Below are positions 5,345 through 31,920 of a DNA stretch of 32,000 bases, in pieces. The stretch is from Candidatus Saccharimonadota bacterium. GTDB lineage: Bacteria; Patescibacteriota; Gracilibacteria; BD1-5; UBA6164. Both the position numbers and the translations under genes were made by a program. Location: NCBI GenBank assembly GCA_004563595.2, contig CP042461.1, forward strand, positions 720,001 through 752,000, in the 5' to 3' direction. The first letter of the stretch is position 1. Every line of letters starts with the position of its first letter. The notes beneath the pieces were generated by a model. It did not search any database and was not told the origin of the DNA. It saw only the letters and a list, made by a program, of their open reading frames with translations.

Positions 5345-5378
5345 ATAAAGACTGGATTACTCTAGTCTTTATTTTTTA
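5345..5378 (+). terminator. rho-independent terminator
   Basis: Stem ataaagact (5345-5353) pairs with agtctttat (5364-5372), followed by a T-run. Confidence 0.6.
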
Positions 5379-5531: not shown

Positions 5532-5550
5532 AGGTAGAATAATTTTTAAC

Positions 5551-5578
5551 TTGACTTTATAGAAAAATATCCTATATT
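5551..5578 (+). promoter_or_regulatory. sigma70-like promoter candidate for the 177-aa membrane protein gene
   Basis: TTGACT (5551-5556), a 16-nt spacer, then TATATT (5573-5578). Confidence 0.4.
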
Positions 5579-5636
5579 TTTAGTACATTTTTTTAGCATT
5601 AGTCTATTATGAAATAAACAGATTAGGAGAAAAACA

Positions 5637-6170
5637 ATGGTACTTGAAATAAAGCAAGAAACAGCTCTCAAAAATACGAGAAGTATTAATTTTCGTGAAT
5701 GGTTAGACCTATTTAAAAAATTGAAGAAACAAGTAACTTCATTAATAGTACACTGCCTACCCATAATTCTTACTTCATTTATTTATATATTTGATATTTT
5801 TTCAAATATAGGAACTGAATGTATGATAATGACACCTGATACATTTTCTACTGCAAGAGCGATGATATTTACAATACTAATACTATGGGTATTTCGTTCA
5901 AGATTCTTTGCAAGTGATTTAAATCCATCACGAAAGAAAGTATTAACAGGTATTATTAGTTCTATTCTTAATTTCGCATTTATAGTCTGCTGTATGACGA
6001 TAGGGTTAATAGATTATCATCTAGATTCTGGCTTAACTCGCCAAGATTATTATAGTATAATTTTTCTGATTTCTATTGCTAGTATGGCAAATATTGGATT
6101 TGTATTAAATACAAATAGAGAACTCTTTCTCGTAAATAAAAATGTTAATAAAAATAGGGTAGTAAACTGA
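5637..6170 (+). CDS. hypothetical 4-TM membrane protein (177 aa if TGA stops; 203 aa to TAA 6246-6248 if TGA=Gly); TGA-free body
   Basis: ATG lies 6 nt after SD aggaga (5625-5630). The basic N-terminus is followed by four hydrophobic spans. All 5 Gly are GGN. The first in-frame TGA (6168-6170) sits exactly where a standard-code stop would be, just before the terminator hairpin. Confidence 0.7.
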   Translation: MVLEIKQETALKNTRSINFREWLDLFKKLKKQVTSLIVHCLPIILTSFIYIFDIFSNIGTECMIMTPDTFSTARAMIFTILILWVFRSRFFASDLNPSRKKVLTGIISSILNFAFIVCCMTIGLIDYHLDSGLTRQDYYSIIFLISIASMANIGFVLNTNRELFLVNKNVNKNRVVN

Positions 6171-6206
6171 AATAATAATGACTCAAAATTAAAAGTCATT
6201 CGTACC

Positions 6207-6236
6207 AAAAAAAGCGTATCATTGATACGCTTTTTT
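6207..6236. terminator. bidirectional rho-independent terminator (gene at 5637 and miaB)
   Basis: Stem aaagcgtatc (6211-6220) pairs with gatacgcttt (6224-6233), flanked by an A-run on one side and a T-run on the other. Confidence 0.7.
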
Positions 6237-6239
6237 AAT

Positions 6240-6396
6240 TTATACTAATTCACCCTTGATAACATATCTATCTAACTCTACTAATTTAACATTTACTAAA
6301 TCTCATACTTTTACGCTTCCCTCTTCTGCTTTAAAAAAGACCTCTTTAAAATTTCTTGTCCTTCAGAAATAATATCAATCCTTAAATCAATTCACA
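6240..6396 (-). repeat. copy B of the roughly 155-bp miaB 3'-end direct repeat (copy A is 5376-5531)
   Basis: By-eye alignment gives about 75-80% identity with one indel. Both copies start right after a terminator hairpin. Confidence 0.75.
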
Positions 6397-7694
6397 AGTA
6401 TTTCTTGAACTGAATCAAGCATTCTCCCATTTCTCTTTATAACATTTTCCAATAATACATCATTCAGTATATGCCATCTCTCTGCTTTTACAGAATCAGG
6501 AACATCGTCAGGATATATCTTACTTGCTATAGTCCCCTTTCTTACTGAATATCTCGCAGTATATGCAAAATCAAACTCACATTCACGGAATGCTTTTATA
6601 GTATCTTGAAACATCTCTTCTGTTTCTCATGAATATCAAACAATAATATCTGTTGATATTGAGAAAAAAGGGTCCTTTGATCTGAGATACTCTACTTGTT
6701 TTTTGAAGTCCTCATATGTATGTCTTCTATTCATTTTCTTTAGTAGAGTATTACTTCCAGATTGAAGAGCAAAATGAAGATAATTACATGAAGAATCTAA
6801 CTTATGATGAGCATCTAAGATATCCTGAGTCATATCATGAGGATTACTTGAAGTAAAACGGATTCTATCTAATCCTTCTAGTTCATTTAAGTCATCAAGA
6901 AGTTTTCTAAATGGTGATTTTCATAATCCATCATTCCACATGGACTTTTCTTCATTCCAAAGTTTTATATTCGATTGTTTTCAATATGAATTTACATTTT
7001 GTCATACAAGACTAATTTCTTTGGTCCCATTTGCAACAAGTTCGCGAGCCTCTGATATGATTTCATCATGTGATCTACTAATTTCTTTCCCTCTTGTATA
7101 TGGGACAATACAAAAGGTACAATAATTATCACATCATGTTTGAACTATGACTGAAGCTGAGTATGGATTTTCTCTAAGTTGCTTAGATTTAAGATAATCA
7201 TCGAACTTATCATCTGATCATATGGCTTCTCAATGAATATGAGTCAGAATAAATGATAAATATTTAACCTCTTCTATTCTCAAAGTAAAATCTAAGCTCT
7301 CTAGTCTTGGAAATAATTTATCATCATTATTAAATATTCCATTTTTATCTGTAATATATTGAATTTTTCTTGCTCTTTTTCTATTTATATCCTCAGCAAG
7401 GTACATTTTATGGAGTCATGTCTTTCTGACCATACAACCTGTAATCCCAGTAATAATTCTTTTAGGATTTCCATCGATTTCTCTCTGAGCATTTTCTTTT
7501 CTGATTTCTTCCGACATACCAAAAACTCTATCTTCTCATTTTTGCCTTACAGAACAGGTATTATATATCACTAAATCCGCATCTCTCCATTCTGATGTTT
7601 TTATAAGACCTGATTGTAACAAGATCATATTGATCTTCTCGCTATCAGCTTTGTTCATCTCACAACCAAATGTCTTTATATAGTATTTTTTCAT
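6240..7694 (-). CDS. miaB: tRNA-2-methylthio-N6-dimethylallyladenosine synthase MiaB (radical SAM methylthiotransferase, 484 aa)
   Basis: N-terminus is [21 protein letters not shown]...[18 protein letters not shown]. The radical-SAM cluster is [19 protein letters not shown]-terminal TRAM domain is present. The 1455-nt frame agrees with track ORFs 6387-6614 and 6636-6833. Confidence 0.9.
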
Positions 7695-7801
7695 TGCTAT
7701 TATTATGTGTAAATATTTGTAGTATTGTATCTAAAAATAATTTTTGTAAAGGGCTTCATGAGACATACCAAATATATCTCATAAATATAATTTCCTGATT
7801 C

Positions 7802-7830
7802 TTGACAAAAGAATAATGTTCTGTTAATAT
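7802..7830 (+). promoter_or_regulatory. sigma70-like promoter candidate
   Basis: TTGACA (7802-7807), a 17-nt spacer, then TAATAT (7825-7830), upstream of the 7882 gene. Confidence 0.4.
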
Positions 7831-7881
7831 AGTTTATATATAATGAAAATATAATAATTTTACTACTAAGATTAAGTACCA

Positions 7882-8265
7882 ATGGAGAATTCAGGGACTA
7901 CTAATACATTTAGTAAAAATCAGTGAGTTTTAACTACGCTTCTTGATAGTGACTTCAATAGGTTTGATAAGATTAAAATTAAATGAGAACCATTTTGAAT
8001 AATCTCAATAAAAAGAATAGTGCATGCTAGGTGATTTATGATACGATATTGAGTAAATGCACACCCTGCTCTACGAGCAAAAGAGCTTGCTGTTACACTA
8101 GGTCAATTTAATAAAATACTACATCAACCGGGTAATACTAAAATAGGACTAGAACTGAGCTCTCCAACCCTAATAATAACAGGTACAATGCTGAATAAAA
8201 AAATTGAATGAGTAGTTGAAGATATCAATAAAAATGCAAATAAAACTCTTAATAGAGATCGTTAG
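7882..8265 (+). CDS. hypothetical protein (127 aa)
   Basis: Table-25 ORF MENSGTTNTFSKNQGVLTTLLDSDF... contains 6 in-frame TGA codons and ends in TAG. It overlaps dcd convergently by 17 nt. No family recognised. Confidence 0.5.
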
Positions 8266-8824
8266 AAATTCTACTCTCTTCAGGAAGCACTTGGTTCATA
8301 TACTTGCTTCCTTTTCTTTTGTCATAAGTATTTTCAACTTCTCATACAATAGTTTCAAAAGCGAACTGCCCAATCCTCATACCTGTATATAGAGCAATAG
8401 GAACTTCATTTATATTTGTCATTTCCAAAGTGATAGTCCCCTCAAATCAAGGATCTATAAACCCTGCTGTTGAATGAATAATAACTCCGAGCCTTCAAAT
8501 AGAACTTCTTCATTCACATCTTGCTACAAGATCGTATGGAATTTTTATTTTTTCAAGAGTCACTCATAATACAAAATCACCCGGATGGAGTACAAACTTA
8601 TCTCAATCTTGAAGTGTAATTGTCTCTACATGATCTGGATCCACTCCATTTCTTGAATCTATTACTGTTTGCCTTGATTTTCTAAAAATCTTAAAAGAAT
8701 TCCCAAGCCTAAAATCTAAACTTGCTGGTCAAATTTGATCAAGGACTTTGTAATCTCATAGAGAGAGAACTTCCATATCTCAAGATTCCAGCCTTCTTCT
8801 TATTTCTGTATCTGATAGTATCAT
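8249..8824 (-). CDS. dcd: dCTP deaminase (191 aa)
   Basis: Motifs seen: MILSDTEIRRRLE, QIGPASLDFRLG and [37 protein letters not shown]. Confidence 0.9.
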
Positions 8825-9296: not shown

Positions 9297-9363
9297 AAAA
9301 AAATATGAAAAAATAAAACTATATTTCCGATTAAATATAGTTTTATTTCATGAATTATCAAGT

Positions 9364-9756
9364 TTATTTTTCGCTTCATCAAAGGAGATCTGAAACATCT
9401 AAGTTTCTCTTTTTTAAGTCAGTATTGAGATTAATAATTTCTTCATCTTTTATACTCTCAATTGATCAATTCTGAATAATCGTTCCAGAGATATTTCACT
9501 TTAACCCCTCTAAGACATTTTTAATTTGCCCAATCTTATCTGAACTAAAATTCATATTTGTGAGATCCATAGATAAAATTTCTGACTTAATCATTGAATG
9601 TTTTTTACAATTTGGACATTCAATATCTATATTGATCGTGCTTCAAGCAGCACCAATAACATCAACATTATTATCTTGTACATCATGAGAACATTCAGGA
9701 CATTTATATGTCTGAACTAAAGAATCTATCATTCACTTTAATGCTTTAAAATTCAT
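9364..9756 (-). CDS. hypothetical zinc-ribbon protein (130 aa)
   Basis: Two CxxC pairs are present, YKCPECSHD and IECPNCKKH. The table-25 frame of 393 nt is continuous. Confidence 0.55.
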
Positions 9757-9856: not shown

Positions 9857-11338
9857 TTACTGTCACAAAGTTTTTAAAGTATTTTCTAGTCTCTTAATTG
9901 ATGTATCAAGCCCCAATATATACATCATTTCTAAAGCTCCAGGTGAAAATTCTTCTCACGATAAAGCTACTCTTGTTGGCCATAAAACTTGTCCGTTTTT
10001 CATTTCTGCTTCTTTGATTTTTTCAACAAATACATTTTTTACATCATCCACAGATTCAAAATCAGATGATTGAGATTGTAATACATTTAGAGTAAGTTCT
10101 AATCATTTTTTTACAATATCTAAGTCTGTGATTTTCATTTTTTCATTCATCAATAAATCTGATGATGGATTTTTAGCATCCCCGTAGAAGAAAGTTGTTA
10201 AATTTTGTAGTTCATCAAACTTCTTTATTCTTCATTTAAGCTCTGATAATATTTTTTTATTATATTCTTCTGGAAAACTTTGAAGCAGATCATAAAAATC
10301 TGAATTATATCTTTTTAAGTAGGTTAATAGTTTATTATAAATATCTGAAATATCAGATTTTTTTAAATAATTTGAATTAAAGAAATCTAGTCTTTCTACA
10401 TCAAAGATAGCACCTGATTTATGAACTTGTTTCAAATTAAATTTCTCAATTAATTCATTAATGGTAAAAAATTCATCTGTAGTTTTTGGGTTCCAACCAA
10501 GAAGTGCAATGTAGTTAATAAGAGCCTCGGTTAAATATCCTTTTTCTAAATATTGTTCAACGGCTACATCTCAAGTTCTTTTCGAGAGTTTTTTCTTATC
10601 ACTTCAAAGTAAAAGTGGAATATGTGAAAAAACTGGAGCTTCCCATCAAAAAGCTTCATACATAAGTACATGTTTTGGAGTTGATGGTGTCCATTCATCT
10701 CATCTTATTACGTCAGTAATTCACATTAAATGATCATCTACTACATTTGCAAGATGATAGGTAGGAAACCCATCAGATTTTAACAATACTTGTTCATCTA
10801 TATCTTTAGAATCAACCTCAATTTTTCATTTTACGGTATCATAGAAGATAACTTTTCTCGCTTCAGGAACTTTGAGCCTTACTGTATAGGGAATTCAACT
10901 CTCTAATTTTGCCTGAATTTCATCATCGGATAAATATCTACATAATTTATCATATTTTGTTGCCAATCAAAGTTCTTTTTGTTCTGTTCTAAGATTATCT
11001 AGTCTTTCACTACTGCAAAAACAATAATATGCTTTATCTTTTTCAATCAGTTCATCTATATATTTTCTATATATCTCCAGTCTTTCAGATTGATAATATG
11101 GTCATTTTTCTCATGGATTATTTGGTCCTTCATCTGGAATAAGTCAAACTGAAGCAAGTACATGAATCATATTTTCAATACTCCCTTCCACAAGTCTTGT
11201 TCTATCCGTATCTTCCACACGAAGCATAAACTTCCCATTATGTTTTTTTGCATATAAATAGTTATATAAAACAGTTCTCAAACTTCAAATATGTAAATAT
11301 CATGTTGGACTTGGTGCAAATCTTGTAATTACTGTCAT
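9857..11338 (-). CDS. gltX: glutamate--tRNA ligase (493 aa)
   Basis: HIGH motif is RFAPSPTGYLHIG, with both Gly encoded by TGA. KMSKS-type motif is [17 protein letters not shown] is also present. The frame matches track ORF 10232-10435. Confidence 0.92.
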
Positions 11339-13875: not shown

Positions 13876-14553
13876 TTATTTTCAAAAATTTCTTTTTGAT
13901 GAGGAGAATCTATCACATACATTTTGTAATTCTTCTCTATTAAATTCTGGCCACTTCTTTTCAGTAAAATAGTATTCAGAATAATCAGAAGAGTATAACA
14001 AAAATCAACTATGCCTAATGTCTCACCCAGTTCTTACTATAACATCTGCTGGTGGGTACTTTCAAGTATCTAAATAATTTGTAAATGAGCTTTCATCCAA
14101 GTTATCTATATCTCATCCCTCAGAGATAAACTTCTTTATTCATCTAATAATCTCATTTTTTCAACCATATACCAGAGCCAGTACAACTGTAATTTTATGA
14201 TTTTCTTTTGTTTCTTCTACGAGTTCATTTAAAACAAGTTGAGATTCGTTAGGTAGTTTATTTATATCTCAGATTAATTCAATTTTTGCTCAGTTTTTCA
14301 TCAAATTTTTCAAATATTTTTTTGCTCAGTTTATTATTTTTATAATATCTTTTACCTCGGTATCACTTCTTTTTATTAAATTTTCTGTACTTAATCACCA
14401 AAAAGTAATATATTCTATTCACTGCTCTATAGCAGATTCAACCACTTTTTCAATATTTTCTGCTCAAGCCTTGTGTCACATGACAGATGGCAAGAATCTC
14501 TCTTTTGCCCATCTACGATTTCAGTCCATTATAATTCAGAGATGTTTTATCAT
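13876..14553 (-). CDS. uppS: undecaprenyl (di-trans,poly-cis) diphosphate synthase (225 aa)
   Basis: Motifs seen: MIKHLGIIMDGNRRWAKE, ITFWGLSTEN and VIVRTGGDIRHSGFLLYSSDYSEYYF. Confidence 0.9.
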
Positions 14554-14567
14554 TTATCAGTATATAA

Positions 14568-16319
14568 TTAATTTAATATCAAATGGTCAACGCTTGCAAG
14601 ATCGTAAAATTTTCATTCTTTTTCCATTAAGTCATCATAACTTCATGACTCTACTATTTCTCATTTCTCAAGGACGAATATTCTATCTACGTGTTTTATA
14701 GTACTGAGTCTATGAGCTATGATTATAGAAGTTCTTCACTTCATGAGTGTATCAAGAGCCTTTTGTATAAGTTTTTCAGTTTTATTATCAAGTGCTGAGG
14801 TCGCTTCATCAAGGATGAGTATTTTTGGATTTTGGAGGAATAATCTTGCAATAGAGAGCCTTTGTTTTTCTCATCAACTCAGTTTTAATCCCCTTTCTCA
14901 AATTACAGTATCAAGTCAATTCTCTAAATCAAAAACAAAGTTTGCATTTGCCTTGTTAAGTGCACTTTCTAATTCTTTCTTTGTAGATTTAGGGTTTGCA
15001 AAGAGTAAGTTTTCTCTAATACTGAGATTGAATAAACTATTGTCTTGAGAGACAACTCAGATATGCGACCTAAGAGATTTTTTATTAATCTCTTTAATAT
15101 TATGATTATCAATCATAATCTCTCAATCATTTATATTCCAAAATCTTAATAATAAGTTAATTATTGTTGATTTTCATGCGCCAGTACTTCAAACAAATCC
15201 TATTTTTTCTCCTGGAGTAATTTTAAAGTTTATTTTTTTTAAAACTATTTTTGATTCTAGATATCAAAAGCTTACATTATTAAATGTAATATATCACTCT
15301 ATAAATTTAATTTTTTTTGACTTTTTCGTATCCTCATCCAGAGATACATTATCAAATTCACTATGAAGTTTCTCAATTGAAGTAAGATATTCAGATACAT
15401 CTCTTAATCTCATAAATATATTTCACAAGGGAAAATAAATCCATCAAATATATGAAAAAAACAAAAATAACATGGCTAATGTAAGTGTTCAATGAATCAA
15501 AAAGTACACTCAAAATCATAATACTAACATTCTTGATATCATGACTAAAGTTCAAGTATATATATATGAGAAACTCCAAAGTTTCATTAAATGGGTCTGT
15601 TTTCAATATAAATAATCAAGTTTTGATGAGATAGATTTTAAAAAATTTTTTTCTAAAACTAAATTTTTTGTAAGTGCAAAGTTACTAAGAATATTTCATA
15701 TATCTCAAAATATAGACTCCCATTTATTAGTTAATTTTCTCTGATCTGGGATTAATCTTTTGAAAAATAATAAATTAATTATTACCATAAATGGTAGCAT
15801 AGATAAAACTAAAACAGCCATCCTAACATCAAAATACATAAGCAGAATAATAATAAGAATTATTCATGTTAAGTCTTTTATAATTTCTCAAAAGAATAGG
15901 TACAATAATCTTTCTTGTCACATGCATCATCTATCAAATATTTTATATAAACTTCATTGTTTTTTTCATAAGTATTCTCAATAAGGCATATTTATAATTA
16001 CATTCGCATATTTTTTATTCAAATCAACATAGTTTTTCATAATCGATTTTGACATCAGAGAATATCTATAAAAATATTGAATAATTATACTAAATAATAT
16101 AAATAGAGCCCAGAATCATATATACCAAATTAATTCTTCAAAATCAAATGTTCATGCTGAGTAAAATATTTCAACTTTTTTAATAATTTGAATAAATATT
16201 AAAGGTTCCAATACAGTAATAAAAGATACGAATACTCAAAAAAACAGTATGAAAATAAATTTTCTCATTCATACTGTTTTGATAAAACTTTCAAATATTT
16301 TTTTTATTGTCTGTTGCAT
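14568..16319 (-). CDS. ABC exporter, fused permease/ATPase (MsbA-like, 583 aa)
   Basis: The N-terminal half is a transmembrane domain. The ABC signature and Walker B read [27 protein letters not shown]. The H-loop region is [11 protein letters not shown]. Confidence 0.88.
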
Positions 16320-18313: not shown

Positions 18314-18512
18314 ACCTCTCACTTGAATTCTCTCCCCTTAACAGGGGAAAGAGGCTACATGTTCATATTATATTGAAAAAATATTGAGTTCTCACTTCGA
18401 AGTTCTTTATTTTAAGATAAATATACCCAATTAAATAAAACTAAGTTTAAATATAGTTTTATAAGATGCAGCCCTTTTCTCCTGATAAGGAGAGAAGATT
18501 CAGATGAGAGGT
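18314..18512. repeat. MITE-like element: 47-bp imperfect terminal inverted repeats around a roughly 105-bp AT-rich core
   Basis: The left arm (18314-18360) is acctctcacttgaattctctccccttaacaggggaaagaggctacat. The reverse complement of the right arm (18466-18512) is acctctcatctgaatcttctctccttatcaggagaaaagggctgcat. That is 37 of 47 matches. Each arm also folds into its own G+C-rich hairpin. Confidence 0.6.
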
Positions 18513-18753
18513 GAAAATACAGGCATAGCGAAGGATTGTAGAGTAATATATTGTAATATTCATTATAAATAGTTTTATACTTGATCTATTATCAAGTTTT
18601 TAACAAAGAAAAAAAATATTTTTTGTTCTTAATAAGTTTATTTATATCATCGTTTCGATGAAAAATAGATAATATTGTATAGTAATATAATGATTATATG
18701 AAACAAAGGAGGGAATTTGTGGGCCATTATTATGTAACCTATTTTTTTGTTGT

Positions 18754-18828
18754 ATGAAGACTTATCTAAAGAAAACCATATCATTGTTTTTAATTATTGC
18801 ATTTTTAAGTAGTAACCTTGTTTTTGCT
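18754..18828 (+). other. Sec signal peptide of the 1883-aa protein
   Basis: MKTYLKKTISLFLIIAFLSSNLVFA followed by ENDKK: basic n-region, hydrophobic core, and an A-x-A-like cleavage context. Confidence 0.7.
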
Positions 18829-21800
18829 GAAAATGATAAGAAAATAAGTAAAAAATTAACTGAAAAAGTTAAAACTATCAAAGAAAAGCAGAAGAAAAAA
18901 GAGAAGAAATTTGCTAAAGTAGTTTGAAAGGCAGATACAATTATCAAAAACTATCAGGAAAAAGTCAAAAAAAAATGAACTGGATATAATAAAAGAAATA
19001 AAGAAAAAATAGAGGCTGTTGTTAAAAAAGCAAAGAAAACAAAGCTAAAATTGATTGAAAGAGCAAATGAACTTTTAAAAGATAATCTTGAAAAAGATGT
19101 TGATGAAGAATTAGACTTATGAGTGATCACTTCAAAGGAAGCATGAGATCTCAAGCAAGAAATCCAGCCAAACTACCTCTTTGAGCTGCAAGAATTAGTA
19201 GGGACTGATATAGTTCCTGTAGATACGAATTTTTCAAACCAATGGGGGTTACAAAACATAGTAAATTGAGAAGTATGAAATAAACTCCTCTATACTTGAG
19301 AAAAAGTAACCGTTGCTGTAATAGATACGTGAGTAGATTTCTCTGTAGAAGATTTAAACTGAAAGCAGTGGAAAAGTGAAACTTGTGTAGATAGTGAATG
19401 AATAGCAATTCCAGGTTGATGTATGGAATGATGATATGATTTTGTAGATGATGATACCAATCCCTACCCAAGTGATAACTATACTCACGGAACCAATGTA
19501 TCATGAATCATCTGAGCAAATACAAATAATAGTGTTTGAATATCAAGTATCGCAAATGATAACGTTGAGATCATGAGTTTGAGAGCCTGTTGTGGTCAAT
19601 GAAACTTCTTCTGAGCGAATGATATTAGTAAAGCAATAAAATTTGCGGTGAATAATGGTGCTGATATTATTAATGCCAGCTTTGGTGGGCCTACGGATGC
19701 TCCTGAAATCAAAGAAGCTATAGAATATGCAAATAATGCATGAGTAACCATTGTAGTTGCTGCATGAAACTATGCTTCGAATAATGATACAAATCCAATG
19801 TATCCAGCAAATTATGCTAATGTGCTGAGTGTAGGATCTATAGATAGTACTGAAAATAGTTCATATTTTTCAAACTACTGAAATTCTGTAGATATTGCAG
19901 CTCCAGGCTCTACTGTATATACAGTAGATTTCAATAATACATATAGAACACTGGATGGGACAAGTTTTTCAACTCCTTTTGTTACCAGTGTTGTTGCGAG
20001 ATATAAATCTCAAGATGCCAGCTTATGAGTTGTTGATTTAAAAAATAAATTATTTATTGCTTCTATTCAAAATCCAGCTTTGAGTTGAAAAGTAAATAAT
20101 GGAATGCAGTTAAAGCTTGATGCGAGTAGTATTGAGAAGGCTTTGGTTGAGAGTGGAGAGGTTGTTGTGGAGGAAGAGTTTGATATACCCCTCCCTAACC
20201 CTCCCCTTCCAGGAGAGGGGACTTGAGGTGATGTTAGTTGAATAGAAATTGATGAGAGATATGTGAAGTTTATGAAACAAATTTCAAAGTTAAGAAAGTG
20301 AAAGATTTCTCAAGAAAGTACAAAGGATACGATAAGTCTTCAAGAAGTAAGTGAACTGGAAGCAGAGCTTCAGACTTTTATAACTTCTGAAAGAGTCAGG
20401 CTTCTTTCTATTAATGGAGTTGATGAACTGAAAATATCTCGTTATATATCATTACTCAACGATCAACTTGATCTCGTAAAAAACTATAATACTACTATTA
20501 ATAATGAATCCAACCAAACAACAGTACAAAGTAGCTCAGTCCAAGATTTTCAAGCATTTTCAATAGAAACCCTCTCAAATCTAGGAATAGAACAAAAAGA
20601 AGCTTCAAAAGATATTCAAACTCTTTCTGATATGAGTTCTTTTAGTTTCTGAGATAGCGTGGAGAATATAGGAAGGCTTTCAGATTATAAAATGATTTTA
20701 GAAAGTAGAGTTCCAACCTCATCAGAAGAAATATCATTTTTAGCTACAGAGTCTTTTGTCCCTGTTCAATTAGAAGACTTACAAGAGAATGAAGAAGTTA
20801 TCATTTCTTCAGACATACAAGACCTAGCAACAGAGTTACATAATAATCCTGTTTCTATATTTAATTATGTTAAAAATAATATAGAGTATGAACCATACTC
20901 AGGAGTAAAGAAAACATCTACTCAGTGTCTGAGAGATAGATCATGTAATGATTATGATAGCTCTTCCCTTCTTATATCACTCCTCAGAGCTTCTGGAATC
21001 CCAGCAAGATATAAACAAAGTCATATTCTCGTATGAAAAGACAATGTAAATAAACTCCTCTGAGTATCTGATATTAAATCAGCATATTACGCATTATCTC
21101 AAGGAAAAATTCCTGTATATATAATGAGCAATGGGAGTCCTATTGATAGCAATTTTGAAACTGCTGATTTCTCAGGAGTCACTCAACTCGTTGTAAAATG
21201 GACCTTTGCAGAAATGTATTATGACTATGATCATAGGTGAGCAAATCATAGTAATGATGTATATTTTTCTGATATTACTACTCAGGCTGAATTAGATACA
21301 AGGCTTGTTGATTACTCTAATAGAGAATGGTTAAAGATAGATCCAACTTTCAAGTTTACTCTCGTTTGAAATGAGGTTTCTGATTCTCATGTAATAGAAG
21401 ACTCTACCATTGATACTCACACATTCTTTGAATCATATTTACAAACCTGAGATACTGATTGAGCATTAGAAGCTTATAAAAAGAAACTTATAGAAACTTC
21501 TCCTGCAACTGATGATACAGAATTAGCTTTATACAATTTCAATAAAAATAATCAAAATACTCACTTTGAAATGCTTCCAGTTACTTTTCCTTATTCTCGT
21601 ATTACATGAACAACAAGCAGTGGAGTAATAATAGAAGATAGTGCTTTTTCTACTATCTCAGATACTGAAAAACAAAAAATAGAAATAGAATTGAAAGACT
21701 CAACTACTTGAAGCGTAGTTCTAAAAAAATCATATAAAGTTACTGAAATAAATAATATTCCTCTCGATCTTCATTATCAATGAGCAACTCAAGCTGATAT

Positions 21801-24405
21801 AGATATTATAGAGAGTTATGGAAGTCTTCATTTAACTCCGAGTAATCTTGTAAATATACAACCAGCGTTTGTATGAGCGGAGTTTAACACTGTTGAATGA
21901 GAAACAATCACAGATAATATTCCTGTGAAAATTTGAGATCAATTGATTCTTACTTTTAGATATTTTGTAAATGGAGTAGAAACAAATGTAAGTTCAAAAT
22001 TTTCGACTGCATGAAATAGAGAAGGTATCTACTTAAACTTCTCAAAAATTGTTTCTGATACTATGGATACTGATTCAAAAGTACTCTTAGCATGAAACTG
22101 GGCTATTGCGAAAAAATATCTTGAAAGACTTGAAATAGCAAGTAATGAACTAGAGCAAATCTTTAATAGAGAAAATACTCTCAACTATTCAAGAGCTGTA
22201 GTTACACAAAATAGAATACTCAATGAAATAAATGGAGATCCTACTACTTTTGAATTTAAATGACTTACTCTTGATGCTCATAGTTATATTGGTGATTACT
22301 ATAGATGAACTGATTTAACGAATTCATATAAAAAGTATTCAAGTGAATTTTGAAAAATCTATGGACTCTATGCTTCAGAGCAAGAAGGACAAATCTTTGA
22401 TGATATTACAGGGTTAACTGGTATCTCAACAGTAAAAGGTCTTCAATATGCATATGCAAATCCTGCAGACTATACCATTCATAAAATTGATAGTTCAAAT
22501 AAATCAGTTATTGATAGTCTTATACTTTCTGAGAATACTAAGACTCTTATGGGAGCTTATGTAGATGAGTGAAGAACTATTACAACACCAAATAAGTTGG
22601 TGAAAAATCAAACTTGGGAAGGTTTGTTTTATACTGCAATTGATAGTGATGGAGAATGAGTGTATGCGATTGGTGAAGGGGTTGCGCAGAATGGTGGGTT
22701 TAGTGTTGATGAAATGCTTGATATGTGAGAAGGAGTAAATGGAGCTCTTATTGCTTGTATAGAAAATTGAGCAACAGAATTACTCGCAAATACCTGTAGT
22801 GCATTTAAAAATTATGAAACAGTTAACTTTAGTTATAGATGAATAGTAAAAAGTAATGATGAACAATCTGTAAAAGACTTATTTTCGTGGGAAGAAAGTA
22901 ATGGACAATTGATAACAACGAGTTATTTAAATTATGGATACCATAATCTTCTATTTACTAAAAATTGAGTTATTTTTGATAACTCATGAAAGGAAATAAA
23001 AAACTGAGATTATAAATATTTTATCTCATATTCTGATATCTCTACAAAACTCAAAAATCATTTTTCTGACCTAGAAAAAATGCACCTTTCTTTAGATGTA
23101 TGAACTTTTTTCTCAGATATAACATCAAGTGAGTATATATATTATTCTCCAAATCCTAATGCTGGAAATGTCTATTCTGTAAAGTGAGCTTTTTTAAAAA
23201 AGCTTAAGAAAACGTATCGTAAATGAGAGGTAAATACAGTTCAAGAATTACTTTGATTCCCAACTTGAGATGAATTATGATGAACAACAATAGAAAGCAA
23301 TGTTGGTTACAAGTATAAATCTCAACCATTTATAAATGGAAATTTATACAGATATGAAAATTTTTATAATATATTTCCTAATACCGTTTATACATACTGA
23401 GCCCTAGAAGAAACCCTTACTAATAATTGATCTGTGACAGCTCTATGACTCCCCGCAGATGATCCAGATTTCTCTGGTAAAAATGATATTATTCAAGAGT
23501 ATGATAGTTGAGTGTTAATAAAGTTAAATCAAGATTGAGAAACAAACTTAGTGTCAGATAAAAGATACGCTTGTTATTTAGCTAATAATTCTGAAATTAC
23601 AAGTAAAACAAAATTAAGACTTGCATTAATTCACTGATTTTTTTCAGAAATTCAAGACGTAATATGATTAGTCCCCGAATTGATTTTTGGAATATCAAAA
23701 TGAATTATAAGATCTGATTTAGAAATTAGAAAAACAGAATTTTATCTTGATGACATAAAAGATTTATTAATTGAAGTAAGTAAGATAAGGCTTAGTTCAA
23801 TAAAAAACTTTTTTCTAGCTACCTGAAATGGTATTTGAAGTGCTTTATATGATGAAATGAATAGTAGTGATACTACTTGTCCTCTCAGAGAAAGCTATGT
23901 GATTTGAAAAATATGGTGAACATTTGTAACGGCATGATTATGATGAGTATGAACTGCAACAAAAATTGAAAAGATTAACGAAGCAAAAAGATTAGCGAAA
24001 TTAATTAATGCATGAAAATTTGATGATATTGTAAAAGCCAAAAAATTTGCAGATGGTAAATTTAATATAAATTGATTTTATGAATTGAATTATCATTTCT
24101 GAAAACATGGTGAAAATTTTTGATTAAACGTAGATAATTTAAATTTAAAATACAAATATCAAGAAATAGCAGAAAAATTTATAATTAAAGGGGGCTGAAA
24201 TAATGTACTTGAATTTTTACAAAAATCATGAAACGCACATGATTATATTAGAATTAATTATAGTGATGAAATAATTTGAATCTACCGTTTAGAAACAAAA
24301 GAAATTACAACTTTCTTTGAGTTTGACAATATAGATAATATGAATTCTAAAATAAAACAAATACTAAATAATATAAATACAAGTAAAATTTCTTGAAACT
24401 ATTAA
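18754..24405 (+). CDS. giant secreted multidomain protein (1883 aa): signal peptide, Lys-rich coiled coil, subtilase S8, transglutaminase-like domain, long unknown region, distinct C-terminal module (polymorphic-toxin-like)
   Basis: A single table-25 frame was verified at 19324, 20659, 21901, 22981 and 24001 (all in the same phase) and ends at TAA 24403-24405. See the domain sub-features below. Confidence 0.85.
19240..20130 (+). other. peptidase S8 (subtilase) domain with an intact Asp/His/Ser triad
   Basis: Asp is in VAVIDTGVD (codon 19324-19326, with the following Gly encoded by TGA at 19330-19332). His is in HGTNVSGIIGA (19486-19488). The oxyanion Asn is in AAGN (its Gly is TGA at 19765-19767). 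Ser is in GTSFSTPFVTSVVA (19963-19965). Confidence 0.9.
20188..20232 (+). repeat. G+C-rich hairpin-like patch inside the coding sequence, related to the arms of the 18314-18512 element
   Basis: The sequence cccctccctaaccctccccttccaggagaggggacttgaggtg is about two-thirds G+C, in a gene of roughly 30% G+C. It shares ctcccctt, aggagag and gaggtga, in the same order, with the inverted-repeat arms. It encodes PLPNPPLPGEGTGGD in a linker. Confidence 0.35.
20850..21360 (+). other. transglutaminase-like (papain-fold) core domain
   Basis: RSCNDYDSSSLLISLLRASGIPARY carries the Cys at 20944-20946. It is followed by WTFAEMYY and EWLKIDPTF (Asp present). The position usually occupied by the catalytic His aligns by eye with Trp. 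Confidence 0.7.
24040..24402 (+). other. C-terminal module of about 120 aa, candidate toxin domain (family not recognised)
   Basis: FNINGFYELNYHFGKHGENFG carries an H-x2-K-H motif at 24094-24108. It follows a Gly-rich hydrophobic segment, IWGTFVTAGLGGVGTATKIEK. It sits directly upstream of two small paralogous genes. Confidence 0.4.
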
Positions 24406-24422: not shown

Positions 24423-24824
24423 ATGGAAAATAGAACTTACGTTTGCCCAAATTGTTGATTTAATGATTTAGCATGAACATATAGTGTATGTAGGGTATGT
24501 ATGTGGGAGGAAGATTTAGATTGAAAAATATATCCCCTTATAGCAACTTGACCTAATAATAGCTTGTATGATGAACAACAAAAAATTATAAAAAAATATC
24601 CATTATCGATCAAAAAAACTATTTTTTTTGATAAGTATGAGAATAAAAATTTTATGATAATGCGATCAAGTAGTTGGAAGCCAATAGATATAGGAGATAT
24701 AAAATATAAAGATAAGCCTTTCATTGAAAAATGGTATTATGAAGATTATATAAAATCTATTTATTGAGATGATTACAATCATTTATTTGAAGAAGCTCAA
24801 GAATATAACCCTACTGATTATTAA
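24423..24824 (+). CDS. CPCC-type cysteine-rich zinc-ribbon protein (133 aa), candidate immunity protein 1
   Basis: MENRTYVCPNCGFNDLAGTYSVCRVCMWEEDLDG...GPNNSLYDEQQ matches the CxxC...CxxCxWE(D/E)D signature of the Cysteine-rich CPCC domain. The C-terminal part reads KDKPFIEKWYYEDY...EAQEYNPTDY. Confidence 0.8.
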
Positions 24825-24965: not shown

Positions 24966-25343
24966 ATGAAAACAGAATATTTTATGTGTATATGTTGTTG
25001 ATTTTATACTTTAAAAAACCCTTTTGACTCCGAGGGTATTTGTAAAGTTTGTAAGTGGCAAGATTCAGCTAATGATAAATTTTATCCTTATTCAACATGA
25101 TGAGCAAACATTGATAATTTAGTGAATTCACAAGAAAAATTAGGATTTCTAAATGGTATGAAAGAATTTGATTGATATATTAGAAACCCTAATTGGAAAT
25201 TACTTACTGGAATCAAAATTAAAGATAAACCTTATGTTGAAAAATGGTTTTATAAAGATGTACTAGAAATTTATAACTCTGAATATTACGAAAAAATCTA
25301 TAAAGAAGCCCAAAAATATAACCCTACTGATTATGAAATATAA
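24966..25343 (+). CDS. CPCC-type cysteine-rich zinc-ribbon protein (125 aa), candidate immunity protein 2 (paralog)
   Basis: The N-terminus is MKTEYFMCICCGFYTLKNPFDSEGICKVCKWQDS...GGANIDNLVNSQE. The shared C-terminal part reads KDKPYVEKWFYKDV...EAQKYNPTDYEI. Confidence 0.8.
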
Positions 25344-25663: not shown

Positions 25664-28600
25664 ATGAAATTTAAAAAACTACTATCCCTACTAACCATCT
25701 CAACACTCCTCATATCTACAACGAACTTACAACACGTAAACGCAAACGTAGATATAGGTTTTGATGTGAGTAATGCAAATGAAATAAATATCCCTGCATT
25801 TCCTGAGGATATTGATACAGCTCCTACTGATTGGTCGGAGACAGATTGGGATTCAGAGACTATCCTCCCTGCAGATAAATTTGCTTATGAAAAGAAACTT
25901 GAAGAGCTTCTAAATGCAGGTGATTTTGAAGCTGTAAAAAATCTGGAGATGAAAAAGACTTCTCTGTCTGATGATGCCTCACTTGAAATCTATGATGTAC
26001 CAAAAGAGGTGCAAGAAGTAGTAAAAGATCATTATGAAAATAGTGGTTGAATTTCTGTACAAGGAGTCTGAAAACCCCTTACATTAAAAGAAAAATTACA
26101 AAAACTCCCTTCTCCTTACAAAGGAAAGGAGCTTGATGTGAGGTCTGAAGATCTTACAATAGAAAAAGAACTCCCTGAAATTTCAAAAAATAAATTGAAA
26201 ACAGTGAAGAAAAAATCACTCCAAGCAATCTCTCTTGGGAAAGCGAACATTTGAAATCTACAATTAGAGGAGCAAGTTGAAAAAGATAGAAGTATTTCTC
26301 TTCAAGGAGTTAATACTCCACTTATAGAATACTATGACGGAATCAGTAATAATAATGTTGATTATGCATTATACTCCCTTACCTCTCTTCAATCTGAAAA
26401 TGGTCTGATATGAAACTCTAGCAGAAATACCTATGAGTTTTTACAACTTTTAAAATCATTTAAGAAAACAGATAACTCAGCATATTACAAAGCAAAGAAT
26501 TACTTTCTCAATCTCGTACCAAGAAATAACCTAGAACTCGTATACAAAATACAAGTTATGAAAGATGAATGACAAGATTATTCTTCTCTTGTAACAAGCC
26601 TCAAAAACTCGATGAACTCAGATAAAGGATACCCTCTTTTAGAAGGATATGATTCTGATATTTATACTAGTATTGAAACTCTCAATCTCCTCACTGATCT
26701 CAATGACTCAGCATACATTGATCCTATGAATTATATACTTTGAAATATTTGATCTACTGGAGAAATTAAATATTACCTTGATTGATGAAAAAATAGTTCT
26801 CTCCTTTCATACAAAGTATTACAAACACTGGAAAAACTTACATTTGCTGATAAAGATACTTATATCACAAAAATACGTGATAACTTAGCTATAAATAGTG
26901 AGAGAAGTACACTAGAGTCATCTCTATACGGTCTTTTACTTGAAAAAGATGGAAATGTACTCGATGAAGTTCAATTCATGAAAAATGACTTAAAAAAACT
27001 TCAATCTTATGACTGAAGTTTTACTGATGATCTGACTACTATATACACTTCCCTCTTTCTTGCTGAAGCTGATTTAGTCATTGAATCCGTTACTCCAGTT
27101 TGAACACTCAAACATAAAGATGCTGCAAAACTTACGGTAACAATTAAAAATAATGGATATAAGAAATCTCTCCCTGTATGAATCCATACATATACAAATA
27201 AATATTATCATGCATGAAAAGCAACAGCTATTAGTGATAGTATAGATTCAAATAGTACTGTCATATTCGAACTTGATTTCAGTTCAACCCCTAGATTTAA
27301 GTGAGATGTAGAGTTTGATTTTTTCCTTGATAATCAAGGAGATATAAATTATGAAGATAATTGGTTCAACTCAGCATTTAATTTTGTAAATACTTCTGAT
27401 AATTCCCCAGTACTTCCGATGAATTATTCAGCTTTCTCACACGAAAGTAGTGCATGACTTGGAATTGCGGCTATTTGGAATGATACTGGTGATATAGATC
27501 TACAAGAATATGTAGTACTTGTAAGAAATAAAGGAGAGTCTGATTGGAAAGAAATTGTATTGAATAAAACTCTCTACCCTGAAGGTGCCTTTATCTCATG
27601 ATTTAATGAATGAGATAAAGTGGAGGTAACAATGTGAGTAAGATTAGCTGATAGCACACTCTCATATTTTTCAAATTTTTCTGAGTTTACTATTACTCCG
27701 ACAGCCAATAAGCTCACTTCTAATGTAAATTGAAAACTATACTCAAATAAACTCTGAGTATATAATGAACTCTTAAAGTGAAATTGATACAGTACAACTT
27801 CTGAACCAGGTTGAGATTTTGATATCTCAGTTCCTGCTTGAAAAACTATTATATCTATTGATAAAGGCTCAGGATACGAGAGCTTTGAAAATAGTATTAC
27901 TGCTGATGGAGTAACTGACATAACTTGATATGAATATCATACAAGACTCAAAGTTGATGCAGAAAAACCAGTAATGTCAGATTTAAAATTTAATGATAAT
28001 TTTGCTATAAAAAATAGGAAAACAAAAAATATTATTATATCATGAACTGATAATATAGGCATTAGAGAGTTTCATTTATATTATTATGATCCAGAATATG
28101 CTTCTTGGATATTTGAAAATAGTATGACTCCTGATTATGGACAATCCACTTATACTTGGAGTATTCCAGAAACTCTTCTCTGAACTTGATATAAACTCAA
28201 AACTGTTGCTATAGATTACAAATGAAATGAGTCTCTCCCACTTGAATATGGTCCATTTGAGATAATAGATTGAACAGCTCCAGAATGAACCATTGAAATC
28301 ACATGATTAGAGGCATGAAGCAAATGGAAACTTTGAGATACAAAAGAGTTTACTTGGAACGTAGATCTTGTTTATGATCTACAGCAAATAGTAAATGTAA
28401 AACTCCATTATGAAAATGCGTTCACATATATTGCGAATTCTATTGATGTAATAAAAACATCTGAATCATATACTATCCCTATTGATTCAAAGTATTTGGC
28501 AAATGTCTGATATATAAGCTTACTGGCTTGTGATGTACAAAATAACTGTAGTACACTTGAGTCACCAAGATTTGAAATATATGAAGAAGAGTTCCAGTCA

Positions 28601-29896
28601 AAATGACCATGGAATCAACCAAGTGATATATGAATAAGTCTCTCAAACTGAAATTACAATAGATATATAGAAAAAGTATTTTTCTGAGAAAATGAAACTA
28701 TAGAAGTTATATTTTCTGAATTTGATAAATATACTTGAAGAGACTATAGACTCGTATATAGAAAATATGAAAACTGAGTTTGGTGAGATGAACAAGTAGT
28801 AAAACAATATAATAATCCAAGTAGTTGACCTTCTCATTCATTTAATTCAATAAAGAGTGTGAAACTAGGAAATAAAATTTGAATTACTTACAGTGATTTT
28901 TACAAAGACCTCACTGCTTCATGATTTGGATATGATGAGTCTGAAATATATGCGATAACTATTGAGAATAGTATTCTTGGAAATCTGACACAAATAAGTA
29001 ATGATACAACTCTTTCATATAATCCTGAATTAGAATTTGATGACAATGGTTTATATGTAATATGGAAAGAATGATATAGTATTACTACAGAAACATGAAA
29101 TAGGAAATTAAAATTACGAAAGGCAGATATAAACTGAATATGGAATAATGAAATTATACTGAGTGAAGATTCAGTTTCATACTATGATTTAGAATATCAA
29201 AATAATAGATTATTTATTTCATATGTATTTGAAGATAATCTGAAACTAAAAGAATATAATTACTCTACAAGCACTTGGAATAATGAAATTCTCATAGGAG
29301 CAGAAACCGGAATAAAAGAAAACAAAATATTTCACAGAAATGGTACAGAAATATATGATCTATTTCTGAAAAAAATTACACCTAACACAACAGGTTTAGA
29401 GAAATATCATCTCATTCACAAGAAAGTAGATCTCACTTGATGAACTGCAAATATATTATTAGAGAAAAATATAACAGCAGCTTCAGATTTAGAAAGCCTT
29501 CAAAAATATACGATTGAAAATAAAGATGGTACTACATATCACCTTGTTTATACAAAACTTTCTCTTACTGAAAACGGGGATAAAATTAGTATAAATTATT
29601 CAGAATATGGAGATAATTTAAATACAAACTATTTAGTTCTCTCTCCTGCTACAAATATAATTTCAGGATCTAATTACTTGTTTACTAGCAAATTAAATGA
29701 TGTGTTAAAACTATGATATGTTTCAACTATCTGATGAGTAACTAAATTACAATATGTCACATGAGATTTTACTCCAAAATCATCTGAATTTAGTTTTCCT
29801 GAATTTGACATTGACGTAACAATGAATCTCAATGAATTTAGAGTTACATTCATATTCCTCTGATACAGATTTAGTTTCTGGCTAAATTTACTTTAA
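25664..29896 (+). CDS. large secreted surface protein (1410 aa): prenyltransferase-like alpha/alpha repeats, CARDB-like and Ig-like beta domains
   Basis: Signal peptide is MKFKKLLSLLTISTLLISTTNLQHVNA. The table-25 frame was verified at 27599, 28622 and 29879 and ends at TAA 29894-29896. It extends track ORF 25664-26050. Confidence 0.85.
26330..27060 (+). other. prenyltransferase/terpene-cyclase-like alpha-alpha toroid repeats
   Basis: Recurrent Q/S-x2-(D/N)G-aromatic repeats: LQSENGLIGNS, NSDKGYPLLEG, GSTGEIKYYLDGG and LQSYDGSFTDD. Confidence 0.4.
27068..27330 (+). other. CARDB-like domain
   Basis: ADLVIESVTPVGTLKHKDAAKLTVTIKNNGYKKSLPVGIHTY... matches the usual DLvv-x-vtvtvkNqG pattern. Confidence 0.5.
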
Positions 29897-29934: not shown

Positions 29935-31920
29935 ATGAAAAAAATACTTTCAATACTTTTGATTTTCTGATTATTACTTCAAAGTTTATTTGTTACAGGT
30001 ACTGCTTATGCAGTAGAAGAAACAACTGTAGATATTGATGGATTATATATGCCTCAATTTGAAGATCCTCTTTTTAAAGAAAATTTTCTAAACAATATAA
30101 TCAAAAATAACTGATTTAATTTACAAGCAGGAGATAACTGAATACCAATTACTACACATGGAGCAAACTATCCTACATACTCTCCTGATGGGAACTATAT
30201 TGTTTATTCTAATAAAGATGGTTCACACTATATATATAAAAAAAATAGTTCTGATAATTCAACTGGTATCCAGTTAGGAACAAAAATAAGTCGAGCTCTT
30301 GTTTATACTCCTGATGGTAATAATCTTATATATACAAATTATAATGATTGATATGCTATATATAAGAAAAGTGCTAATGATCTTGCTAACTGAAACTGAA
30401 TTACAAATTATTATTGATATTACCCTCAAGTTTCACCTGATTGAAATGATTTATATTTTGTAATAAAATGATCTAATACTTATAAAGTCTATAAAAAAGC
30501 AATAAATGCACCAATAAATGACTGAGATCTAATAATTGATAAAGAAGTATACTGGATATCACTTTCTCCAGATTGAAATAATTTAATATATAAAGACTGA
30601 GCTAATAATCTTTTATACAATAGAGATTTAGTAAATAACACAACTAAACTAATTACAAGTGTTGGTTGAGCAACATTCACATATTCTCCAGATTGAAAAT
30701 ACCTAATTTATACAAATGAAAGTGATTGATATAAACTTTACAAAAAAGATCCAAACACCTTGTCTAATGGGACGGCAATAAATAGTGTATCTTCATTCTA
30801 CCCTGCATTTTCTCCTGATTGAAAATACTTAGTTTATACGAATATCAGTGATGGATATAAAATGTATAAAATTGAGATGCCTTTTGTCACTGAACTATGA
30901 TCAATAACATCTACTCAAACAGTTATTAATTCTAATAATGAAAATTCAGTAGATTTTTCAATTAGCTGAATTAAGGATACAGATAGTGGAAATACAATCA
31001 CTTATAGCTATTCTTTTAATAATTCCACTTTTACAAATCTACCTGTTACAAATACAAGTCCAATATCAAATGGGACTTATAATTTTAATTTAGATTTATC
31101 AAGTAGACCATCTTGAGATATTACGGTATATATAAGAGCAAATGATGGAAGCGAAAATTCTAATGTAGTAAGTATAACTCTTGTAAAAAATAATACCCCT
31201 ATTCTTGATTCATTAACTTCAACTCAAACAGATATAAACTTAGATAATGTTTTAAGTCTAGATTTAAAAGTGAATTGAATCAATGATCCTGATACATCAA
31301 ACACTCTAAGCTATAGTTACTCTTTTGATAATATCGATTTTACTGATTTAACGGATACTTGAATCTCACCAATTTCAGATGGAAATTATAATTTTGATTT
31401 AAATCTCTCATGACAAGATGATGGATTAGTCAACATATATGTAAAAACAAATGATTGATATGAAAATTCAAACACGGTAAGTTTAGCTTTAAATAAAAGT
31501 GCTACATTATTAGTCCCAACTGCACCTTCAGCTGTGAATACAAATAATATATCATTAAACTGAGCAACATATAGTTGGACTGATAATTCAGAAGGTGACA
31601 ATAGAGAGTATAAACATGTCATTAAAGATCAAGATAATAATATTATAGTTGATGAAATTTGAGCAAATGCTACAAATATTATAGAATCATGATTAACTCC
31701 AAATACGTCATATCAAAGAAAAATATGTGCAGTAAATGATGCATGAGAAGCTTGTAGTATACTAATAAATTTTACTACAAAAATAGAAGTAACATGATGA
31801 AAAACAACTACCTTTGACTTTGCATGAATTGTCATCAATATTGTTGAAACACTTGAGATGTTTAAAGTAGAATTTAATATCTGAGAATTTAAAATTAATT
31901 TTAGTATTGAAAAGATATAA
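29935..31920 (+). CDS. secreted TolB-like beta-propeller protein with tandem Ig-like repeats and an FN3-like domain (661 aa)
   Basis: Signal peptide is MKKILSILLIFGLLLQSLFVTGTAYA. There are six PD40-type blades (YSPDGNYIVY, YTPDGNNLIY, VSPDGNDLYF, LSPDGNNLIY, YSPDGKYLIY, FSPDGKYLVY). The frame ends at TAA 31918-31920. Confidence 0.85.
30150..30880 (+). other. six PD40 (WD40-like) beta-propeller repeats
   Basis: The x-SPDG-x-x-L-(I/V)-Y ... Y-K-(I/L/V)-Y-K-K periodicity repeats six times. Several of the SPDG Gly codons are TGA. Confidence 0.8.
30901..31518 (+). repeat. intragenic tandem duplication: two 309-nt (103-aa) Ig-like units
   Basis: Unit 1 (30901-31209) reads SITSTQTVINS...YSYSFNNSTFTNL...ISNGTYNFNLDLS...VYIRANDGSENSN. 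Unit 2 (31210-31518) reads SLTSTQTDINL...YSYSFDNIDFTDL...ISDGNYNFDLNLS...IYVKTNDGYENSN. Confidence 0.8.
31516..31780 (+). other. fibronectin type III-like domain
   Basis: PTAPSAVNTNNISLNGATYSWTDNSEGDNREYKHVIKD...GLTPNTSYQRKICAVNDAGEA fits the FN3 pattern of a conserved W, a T-x-Y and an A-x-N-x-x-G. Confidence 0.55.

Follow-up and report, generated by a model that had tools for sequence, protein, structure and literature searches.

The window analysed here is a 32,000-nucleotide stretch of bacterial DNA (contig CP042461.1, positions 720,001 to 752,000) that carries one very long gene, which we call gene A. The gene encodes a secreted multidomain protein of 1883 amino acids (aa), and the question that the locus raises is whether this protein is a peptidase, an attachment device or a weapon. 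Its ultra-small bearer belongs to the Candidate Phyla Radiation (CPR; also called Patescibacteria), which makes up a large share of bacterial diversity and whose members live attached to other cells; we know of little that explains how these bacteria attack, hold or compete for hosts. An earlier note on this DNA, made from the sequence alone, had proposed that gene A has the architecture of a polymorphic toxin followed by immunity genes. A comparison of 17 loci, drawn from six or more named CPR lineages, supports that central claim: as judged from the sequences, gene A belongs to a family with a conserved body whose last ~130 residues are swapped together with the small gene or genes downstream, which is the signature of toxin/immunity systems. 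We consider it probable, with a likelihood of roughly 70%, that the locus is a polymorphic toxin system specific to CPR, in which gene A carries the toxin.

Relatives of gene A identify both the conserved and the variable parts of the protein. A search with the body recovered P0002–P0006 at 32–42% identity, and the cluster of P0002 contains two full-length proteins, P0010 and P0011 (1908–1922 aa), which share with gene A the signal peptide, coil, S8 domain, linker, transglutaminase-like domain and body, and which represent an orthologue from marine Gracilibacteria (locus L001). In 100-residue windows, gene A and this orthologue are 30–76% identical over residues 1–1600, and after residue ~1600 the identity is 18–22%, which is background. 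A family scan with a narrower alignment, covering one genome per GTDB species, returned 15 loci; a profile search with a wider alignment added only P0025 among the best 8000 candidates, and the comparisons reported here took in 17 loci, including L001, L003 and L005–L007. Eleven of the 15 scanned loci are in metagenome-assembled genomes (MAGs) labelled as CPR/Patescibacteria, with Magasanikbacteria, Peregrinibacteria, Komeilibacteria, Uhrbacteria, Gracilibacteria, Peribacteria, Paceibacterota and unclassified Patescibacteria among the lineages named. Four (L009, L010, L017 and L018) are in MAGs titled 'uncultured Gammaproteobacteria', and these titles may be placeholders or errors, because the gene content resembles that of the CPR loci. 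The organism-labelled members are all CPR/Patescibacteria save for a distant transglutaminase-plus-body relative from a Geobacteraceae MAG, and the distribution of the family appears to be restricted to CPR. Complete frames are present in 11 loci, where they use the standard code and encode giants of 1277–1598 aa without an S8 domain.

The variable part of these proteins begins at a recognizable junction. In the relatives a common pre-toxin region extends from [KR]-Y-x-C to C-[PA]-x-R-x-x-Y-x-x-G-[RK]-[IVLM]-x-G-[EQ]...P-[AT]-x-K-[LG], and the corresponding region of gene A is homologous to those of L011/L012 (E 2e-11) and L009. In the window protein it ends in C-P-x-R-x-x-Y-x-x-G-K-I-x-G...T-K-I-E-K, differing from its relatives at the last two elements, with G-T-F for G-[EQ] and T-A-T-K-I for P-[AT]-x-K-[LG]. 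The earlier note had suggested comparing orthologous loci and had named a uniformly conserved C-terminus as evidence to the contrary; the 17 loci show a conserved body and, behind the common pre-toxin region, about ten unrelated C-termini. One tail type is present in L009, L013 and L018, another in L011, L012 and the tip of L008, and others in L003 and L014, in L017 and L019, and in L005 and L006, with L016, L001, L007, L021 and the window protein each having its own. Shuffling is illustrated by L008, in which the pre-toxin region of L005/L006 is joined to the tip of L011/L012, and L016 has 242 aa in common with L003 before the two diverge. Two tips have an identity in full, that of L021 being an AHH nuclease (PF14412, 36 bits; cut-off 22.3) and that of L007 NAGPA, and the tips of the L009 group contain a PD-(D/E)xK-like D...E-V-K motif, a similarity at the motif level only (Pfam DpnII-MboI, E 0.19). 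Downstream of the giant's own small gene, L019 also contains a free-standing EndoU_bacteria module (1.7e-16) with a small gene (14173–15178), a fragment homologous to which is found in L017 (5453–5674); the L019 pair is an orphan toxin/immunity cassette within the family.

The gene that follows the giant varies with its tip. At 16 of the 17 loci there is a small gene, its product lacking a signal peptide, whose start falls in the interval from 40 bp ahead of the giant's stop codon to 28 bp past it; at L011 the first called gene lies 426 bp past that codon. Sequence similarities place these small genes in families that co-vary with tail type in three groups: those of L009, L013 and L018 are mutually similar (E 5e-16, 3e-14 and 1e-5), those of L011 and L012 are 73% identical, and those of L005 and L006 have a common DUF7957-like domain. 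The second small gene of L003 resembles the first of L016 (E 3e-18), as an orphan immunity gene would be expected to do, and there is a DUF1963 gene (2e-56) nearby in L021 and DKNYY proteins nearby in L014 and L007.

In the window itself, the two small paralogous genes that had been noticed directly downstream of gene A both encode proteins of the Cys_rich_CPCC family (32.2 and 37.2 bits against a cut-off of 24.5). The first starts 18 nt past the gene A stop codon, with an alternative TTG start at 24393 that overlaps the end of gene A. The paralogy is clear (E 5e-21; 34% identity by BLASTP and 39% in a MAFFT alignment), C8, C11, C23 and C26 are invariant between the two, and both are acidic to mildly acidic proteins without signal peptides. 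Both match the N-terminal CxxC...CxxC half described by PF14206, and they differ from it in having an additional C-terminal half of ~70 aa that is kept between the paralogues and lies outside the Pfam model; a search of NCBIfam gave no match for either of them, for the gene A tail or for partner B, the large protein encoded further downstream. A CPCC gene is also found on the Priestia megaterium plasmid NZ_CP018879.1 (L026), where ~13 small genes that all run in one direction form an array (1548–8385) that looks like a poly-immunity island; within it the CPCC gene is flanked by a Barstar gene (2e-20) on one side and a CdiI-immunity gene (5e-29) on the other, and this one independent case is a first functional hint for the family. 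Because of this arrangement and of the position of the genes behind gene A, we propose that the CPCC proteins are candidate immunity proteins.

The loci have a further conserved component in partner B, homologues of which follow the giant at 15 of the 17 loci, the contigs of L007 and L017 ending before that position. These homologues are 24–36% identical to the window's partner B over ~700–1400 aa where the similarity is significant (the direct match at L008 is N-terminal only), and partner B has a weak match to CARDB in Pfam. Downstream of its giant, L001 has first a 147-aa gene with no relationship to CPCC, then a 1427-aa protein that is 36% identical to partner B, and then a 604-aa PD40/fn3 protein (18566–20380) that is 38% identical to its counterpart in the window (29935–31920); this is the only locus at which the PD40/fn3 protein is syntenic. 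Because both flanks are orthologous while the tip and the small gene differ, the alignment of the two loci points to a cassette swap in which the C-terminal module and the small gene changed together. Partner B and the PD40/fn3 protein end (29792–29896 and 31816–31920) in a similar beta-rich motif of ~35 aa, F-x-F...I-[DN]-[IV]...F-[RKQ]-[VI]-x-F...[FLW]-x-[ILV], which also ends L001 14229–18512 and 18566–20380, is absent from partner B of other CPR, and may serve this lineage as a C-terminal signal for sorting or anchoring. At L005 there is in addition a 254-aa secreted protein (5529–6293). Its first domain, of ~100 aa, is the N-terminal one of partner-B proteins (39% identity to residues 33–108 of window partner B), and its C-terminus shows weak similarity to the neighbouring giant's tip (E 0.002, in a search of a small database). 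Because this protein joins both similarities, toxin tips may also ride on a partner-B-type leader.

Table 1. Features of the window, with the parts of gene A in order; residues are those of the gene A protein.
Feature	Residues	Window coordinates	Strand	Basis
Bacterial RNase P RNA, class A		2390–2777	+	160 bits, full length
Gene A, 1883-aa secreted multidomain protein, candidate polymorphic toxin		18754–24405	+	Single open frame, table 25
Sec-type signal peptide	1–25	18754–18828	+	Read by eye
Lys-rich stalk, probably coiled coil	26–180	18829–19293	+	Composition
Peptidase S8 (subtilase)	182–433	19297–20052	+	Pfam PF00082, 3.4e-45
Coiled linker with in-frame GC-rich palindromic element	~441–680		+	Sequence
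GC-rich palindromic ~40-nt element, in frame in gene A, translates to PLPNPPLPGEGTGG		20186–20230	+	Sequence comparison
Transglutaminase-like (papain-fold) domain, predicted catalytically inactive	~681–870	20794–21363	+	PF01841, 7e-8
Family-specific body	871–1600	21364–23553	+	Conserved in 17 loci
Pre-toxin domain	1603–1750	23560–24003	+	Homology to L011/L012 and L009
Variable C-terminal module, candidate toxin domain, orphan	1751–1883	24004–24402	+	No homologue
CPCC-family small protein 1, 133 aa from ATG, candidate immunity		24423–24824	+	PF14206, 9e-8
CPCC-family small protein 2, 125 aa, candidate second/orphan immunity		24966–25343	+	PF14206, 2.5e-9
Partner B, 1410-aa secreted protein		25664–29896	+	Homologues follow the giant across the family
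PD40 beta-propeller/fn3 secreted protein		29935–31920	+	Pfam PD40, 1.9e-17

Gene A itself is a single reading frame, as the earlier note had stated. Its 5652 nt correspond to 1883 codons plus TAA, and this terminal codon is the only stop under tables 25 and 4, compared with 84 stops under table 11; the 83 in-frame TGA codons are read as Gly under table 25. From the base composition of the window, the chance of 1883 codons without TAA or TAG is ~1e-55. In the subtilase motifs D-T-G and A-A-G-N, the codon for the invariant Gly (residues 193 and 338, respectively) is TGA, which therefore encodes Gly, not Trp, and in-frame TGA codons are present in all other long open reading frames (ORFs) of the window. 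The suggestion that the gene would be invisible to standard annotation has to be withdrawn, since NCBI holds the correct table-25 protein, identical to our translation, as QFR39277.1 from Ca. Gracilibacteria bacterium 28_42_T64. It is named 'S8 family serine peptidase' there, and gene A is thus annotated, but only as a peptidase; in the paper describing this closed and curated genome of 1.34 Mb, it goes undiscussed.

The N-terminal half is organized much as had been described, with a signal peptide, a Lys-rich coil and a complete S8 subtilase. The N-terminus, MKTYLKKTISLFLIIAFLSSNLVFA/EN, has on reading by eye a basic n-region, a hydrophobic core and a putative cleavage site after VFA; the stalk that follows, 30% Lys over residues 26–130, is 45–54% identical to that of the marine orthologue. 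The Peptidase_S8 match scores 155 bits against a cut-off of 21.8 and spans positions 1–269 of the 288 in the profile, the catalytic set is present in order (D191, H245, N339 as the oxyanion residue, and S404), and the domain is the best-conserved part of gene A, at 70–76% identity to the orthologue. No credible Pfam family was found for residues 440–700 even at E<=10. The subtilase had also been cast as the peptidase that releases the toxin, which does not hold for the family, as S8 is absent from 15 of the 17 members and is thus not required by the family for such a role. Given that it is found only in two Gracilibacteria lineages, we regard it as a lineage-specific add-on, predicted to be active from its intact catalytic set and with an unproven releasing role.

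The next domain had been read as a transglutaminase-like papain-fold core, and of this the fold stands and the enzymatic core does not. The Transglut_core match (residues 697–753, 33 bits against a cut-off of 23) covers only the first half of the profile (positions 16–74 of 108), and Foldseek places an AlphaFold2 (AF2) model of the domain on 3isr, TgpA and CPR-C4. The catalytic Cys of 3isr_A (GVCRDFA) is opposite Asp732 in the alignment, and in the family alignment the position of the His is occupied by Trp816 and Asp alone is kept (D863 of IDPT); with Cys replaced by Asp and His by Trp, the domain is predicted to be catalytically dead. A pair of cysteines adjoining Asp732 (C724 and C730, C-x5-C) is invariant in five of five CPR subfamily sequences and absent from the distant relatives P0007 and P0008, and we infer that it forms a disulfide. 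Beyond this domain lies the stretch of about 800 aa that had been left unassigned, and it remains so: no credible Pfam family was found at E<=10 for residues 900–1883, and Pfam detected no RHS repeats in gene A. An AF2 prediction of residues 640–1600 from an eight-sequence alignment gave a predicted template modelling score (pTM) of 0.61, with a predicted local distance difference test score (pLDDT) of 70–90 for residues 669–1309. The structural search that had been proposed for the body, with Foldseek against the PDB, found nothing at E<=0.001 beyond the transglutaminase core. LGFP-like motifs, LGFPTG and LGLPAD, are present at residues ~1500 and ~1564; the profile of the LGFP repeat (PF08310) gives no match to the window protein and sub-threshold scores to the homologues P0003–P0005 (15–17 bits against a cut-off of 22).

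Towards the C-terminus, the Gly-rich hydrophobic segment of the earlier note is present at ~1725–1745, as the end of the conserved pre-toxin domain rather than as a free linker. The distinct C-terminal module that it had set apart is confirmed as ~133 aa without a homologue: a word-index search with the last 196 and 144 aa gave none, and the tip has no sequence match in Pfam, NCBIfam or the PDB, a match of the tail to eIF4A in the PDB search being due to chance. The GC content of the tip is 20.3%, and 11% at third codon positions (GC3), the lowest in gene A, compared with 28% for the window overall and 30–35% for the S8, linker, transglutaminase-like and body segments, and the fall begins in the pre-toxin region. 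A YHFGKHG motif at ~1780 was considered as a link to the tips of L003 and L014 (HxxKH) and to the 'H, KH' of Ntox35, and was rejected because a hidden Markov model built from the L003/L014 tails scored 0.0 bits on the window tip, with 1231 of 2000 shuffled sequences scoring as high. Nor did the tip match a BECR-fold RNase such as Ntox35 in Pfam, even at E<=10.

We suggest that the gene A protein would be exported by the Sec pathway and would be either presented at the cell surface or released from it, with presentation depending on its coiled stalk, its inactive and presumably peptide-binding transglutaminase-like domain, and its conserved body. Its probable companion in this is the secreted partner B, which may bind it in a complex and would serve as a co-factor in display or delivery. 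The part beyond the pre-toxin junction, the last ~133 residues, would be an exchangeable effector that does damage to its target cell, whether the host or a competing bacterium, and the two predicted cytoplasmic CPCC proteins would neutralise this module in the producer. The S8 domain may process the gene A protein or attack surface proteins of the target. A bolder version, that gene A and partner B constitute a CPR-specific contact-dependent delivery apparatus injecting exchangeable effectors, with a new toxin fold at the tip and with CPCC as a new and widespread immunity family, is one that we put forward tentatively and consider rather doubtful; if true, ultra-small epibionts inject exchangeable effectors into host or rival cells.

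Several observations weigh against a polymorphic toxin. A phmmer search with the tip against 1.84e9 representatives recovered only the gene A protein itself, although relatives in code-25 genomes would be missed in searches of this kind because table-11 gene calling fragments them. No catalytic motif can be recognised in the tip, an AF2 model made from its sequence alone is unusable (pLDDT 45), and the tip is mildly acidic (isoelectric point of 5.9 for residues 1765–1883), unlike many nuclease toxins. The searched literature contains no function or immunity role for CPCC, and likewise no link of DUF7957 or of the gene A scaffold to immunity or toxins. A metagenome scan with the CPCC pair found no close relative, only two remote matches that share the CPCC motif alone and have an uninformative context. 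Co-variation of tips and small genes is incomplete, in that L003 and L014 have the same tail type and first downstream genes that are not recognisably similar; the glycosidase-type NAGPA tip of L007 is not a classical toxin; and no delivery mechanism is evident.

Some of these points would be accommodated if gene A and partner B were instead an adhesion or host-attachment apparatus of an epibiont, with the C-terminus a host-specific binding or cell-wall-modifying domain and the small genes unrelated or chaperones. The large secreted partner kept at 15 of 17 loci, the inactive transglutaminase-like domain proposed as a peptide-binding anchor, the LGFP-like repeats, the NAGPA tip of one relative and a window tip without a toxin signature all favour such an apparatus. 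It sits poorly with the AHH nuclease tip of one relative and the free-standing EndoU module at one locus, both of which act inside cells, with small cytoplasmic downstream genes that co-vary with tip type, and with the DUF1963 and CdiI/Barstar-type neighbours, which point to immunity logic, and we consider it unlikely. Somewhat less probable still is a chiefly nutritional or processing role, in which gene A would be a tethered subtilase that breaks down external proteins to feed an amino-acid-auxotrophic cell, the rest being a surface anchor and the C-terminal variability neutral drift. The S8 domain is indeed complete and is the most conserved segment, and the genome paper argues that the organism, which has many peptidases, subsists on peptides of external origin. 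Yet 15 of 17 members lack S8 and still have the body with its junction and variable tip, together with the small gene and partner B, and drift leaves unexplained both the joining of unrelated tips at one motif and the presence of common tips on divergent bodies, such as the L008 tip that resembles those of L011/L012.

It might finally be supposed that the long frame is an artefact, with genes fused by misassembly or sequencing error, or with internal starts giving separate products, a splitting that the earlier note had itself raised as a possible objection. A scan of gene A for promoters and terminators gave the same counts as in shuffled sequence, with no excess of promoter-like hexamers and no terminator-like site on the + strand between the domains. 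The source genome is closed and curated, and homology runs unbroken over every domain boundary. The independent orthologue of 1908–1922 aa keeps the same order of parts; the contig collection lists it in 61 blocks, and all 24 of the 24 contigs read carry it. We see no sign of a split and give an artefact almost no weight. A polymorphic toxin system thus remains the reading that we prefer.

The linker of gene A also contains a small repeated element. This sequence of ~40 nt, CCCCTCCCTAACCCTCCCCTTCCAGGAGAGGGGA, is partly palindromic, lies in frame within the coding sequence, and is translated as PLPNPPLPGEG. It is present at L001 as well, at 9320–9429, 10512–10546, 11055–11101, 14649–14695 and 15386–15432, in either orientation and at non-homologous positions in orthologous genes, and its behaviour is that of a small, mobile palindromic repeat whose insertion ORFs can tolerate, as is the case for the Rickettsia palindromic elements (RPEs). 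Two GC-rich hairpin-like sequences, CTCTCCCCTTAACAGGGGAAAGAG (18318–18350) and CCCTTTTCTCCTGATAAGGAGAGAAG (18473–18500), are located in the 509-nt intergenic region upstream of gene A and may be degenerate copies of the same element. Elsewhere the window contains an RNase P RNA gene (Table 1) and no tRNA genes.

As a polymorphic toxin system, the gene A locus would define a CPR-wide scaffold with a clear recombination junction, and the family would be a catalogue of exchangeable tips, some without known relatives. It would also supply candidate new immunity families (CPCC, DUF7957-like and others) and, for the CPCC family, which is uncharacterised, a first lead to a function. The earlier note had not recognised the combination of S8 and transglutaminase domains as a described toxin scaffold, which is only half right, in that both domain types are already found in the survey of Zhang et al. 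2012 (Biol Direct 7:18): subtilisin domains are listed there for Sec-exported polymorphic toxins, and N-terminal inactive transglutaminase domains are proposed to anchor the toxin by binding peptides. The Sec-exported toxins with an inactive transglutaminase, which are of the type II secretion system (T2SS) type, resemble gene A in their signal peptide, lost catalytic residues, long presentation region and variable C-terminal toxin, and resemble its family in having a downstream immunity gene (a candidate here) and, in some loci, orphan cassettes. They differ in having RHS repeats, where the gene A family has its own body of ~900 aa without a Pfam or PDB match, and in having the transglutaminase module directly behind the signal peptide or transmembrane segment, where in gene A ~650 residues including S8 precede it; at the gene A loci, moreover, a conserved gene for a large secreted partner follows the candidate immunity genes. 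The gene A domain works like the inactive-transglutaminase module of Zhang et al. but does not have the same architecture, since it is not directly behind the signal peptide and no RHS array follows it.

The subtilisin-releasing toxins (Ntox32-bearing RHS proteins in Tables 1 and 2 of Zhang et al. 2012) combine S8 with a variable C-terminus as gene A does, whereas in gene A the S8 domain is ~1300 residues upstream of the junction, in addition to its absence from most of the family. The family is also like CdiA and Rhs/WapA, in which a conserved motif (VENN, PxxxxDPxGL) marks the recombination junction, C-terminal modules are shuffled among scaffolds, and the C-terminal toxin and immunity genes constitute a unit; it is unlike them in its different junction motif, and in that the gene A locus has no TpsB/CdiB transporter, RHS shell or type VI or VII secretion (T6/T7) marker. 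No polymorphic toxin family from CPR/Patescibacteria turned up in the searched literature, with respect to which the gene A family is previously undescribed, and to the known systems it adds a family-specific body, a junction motif of its own and an obligatory partner.

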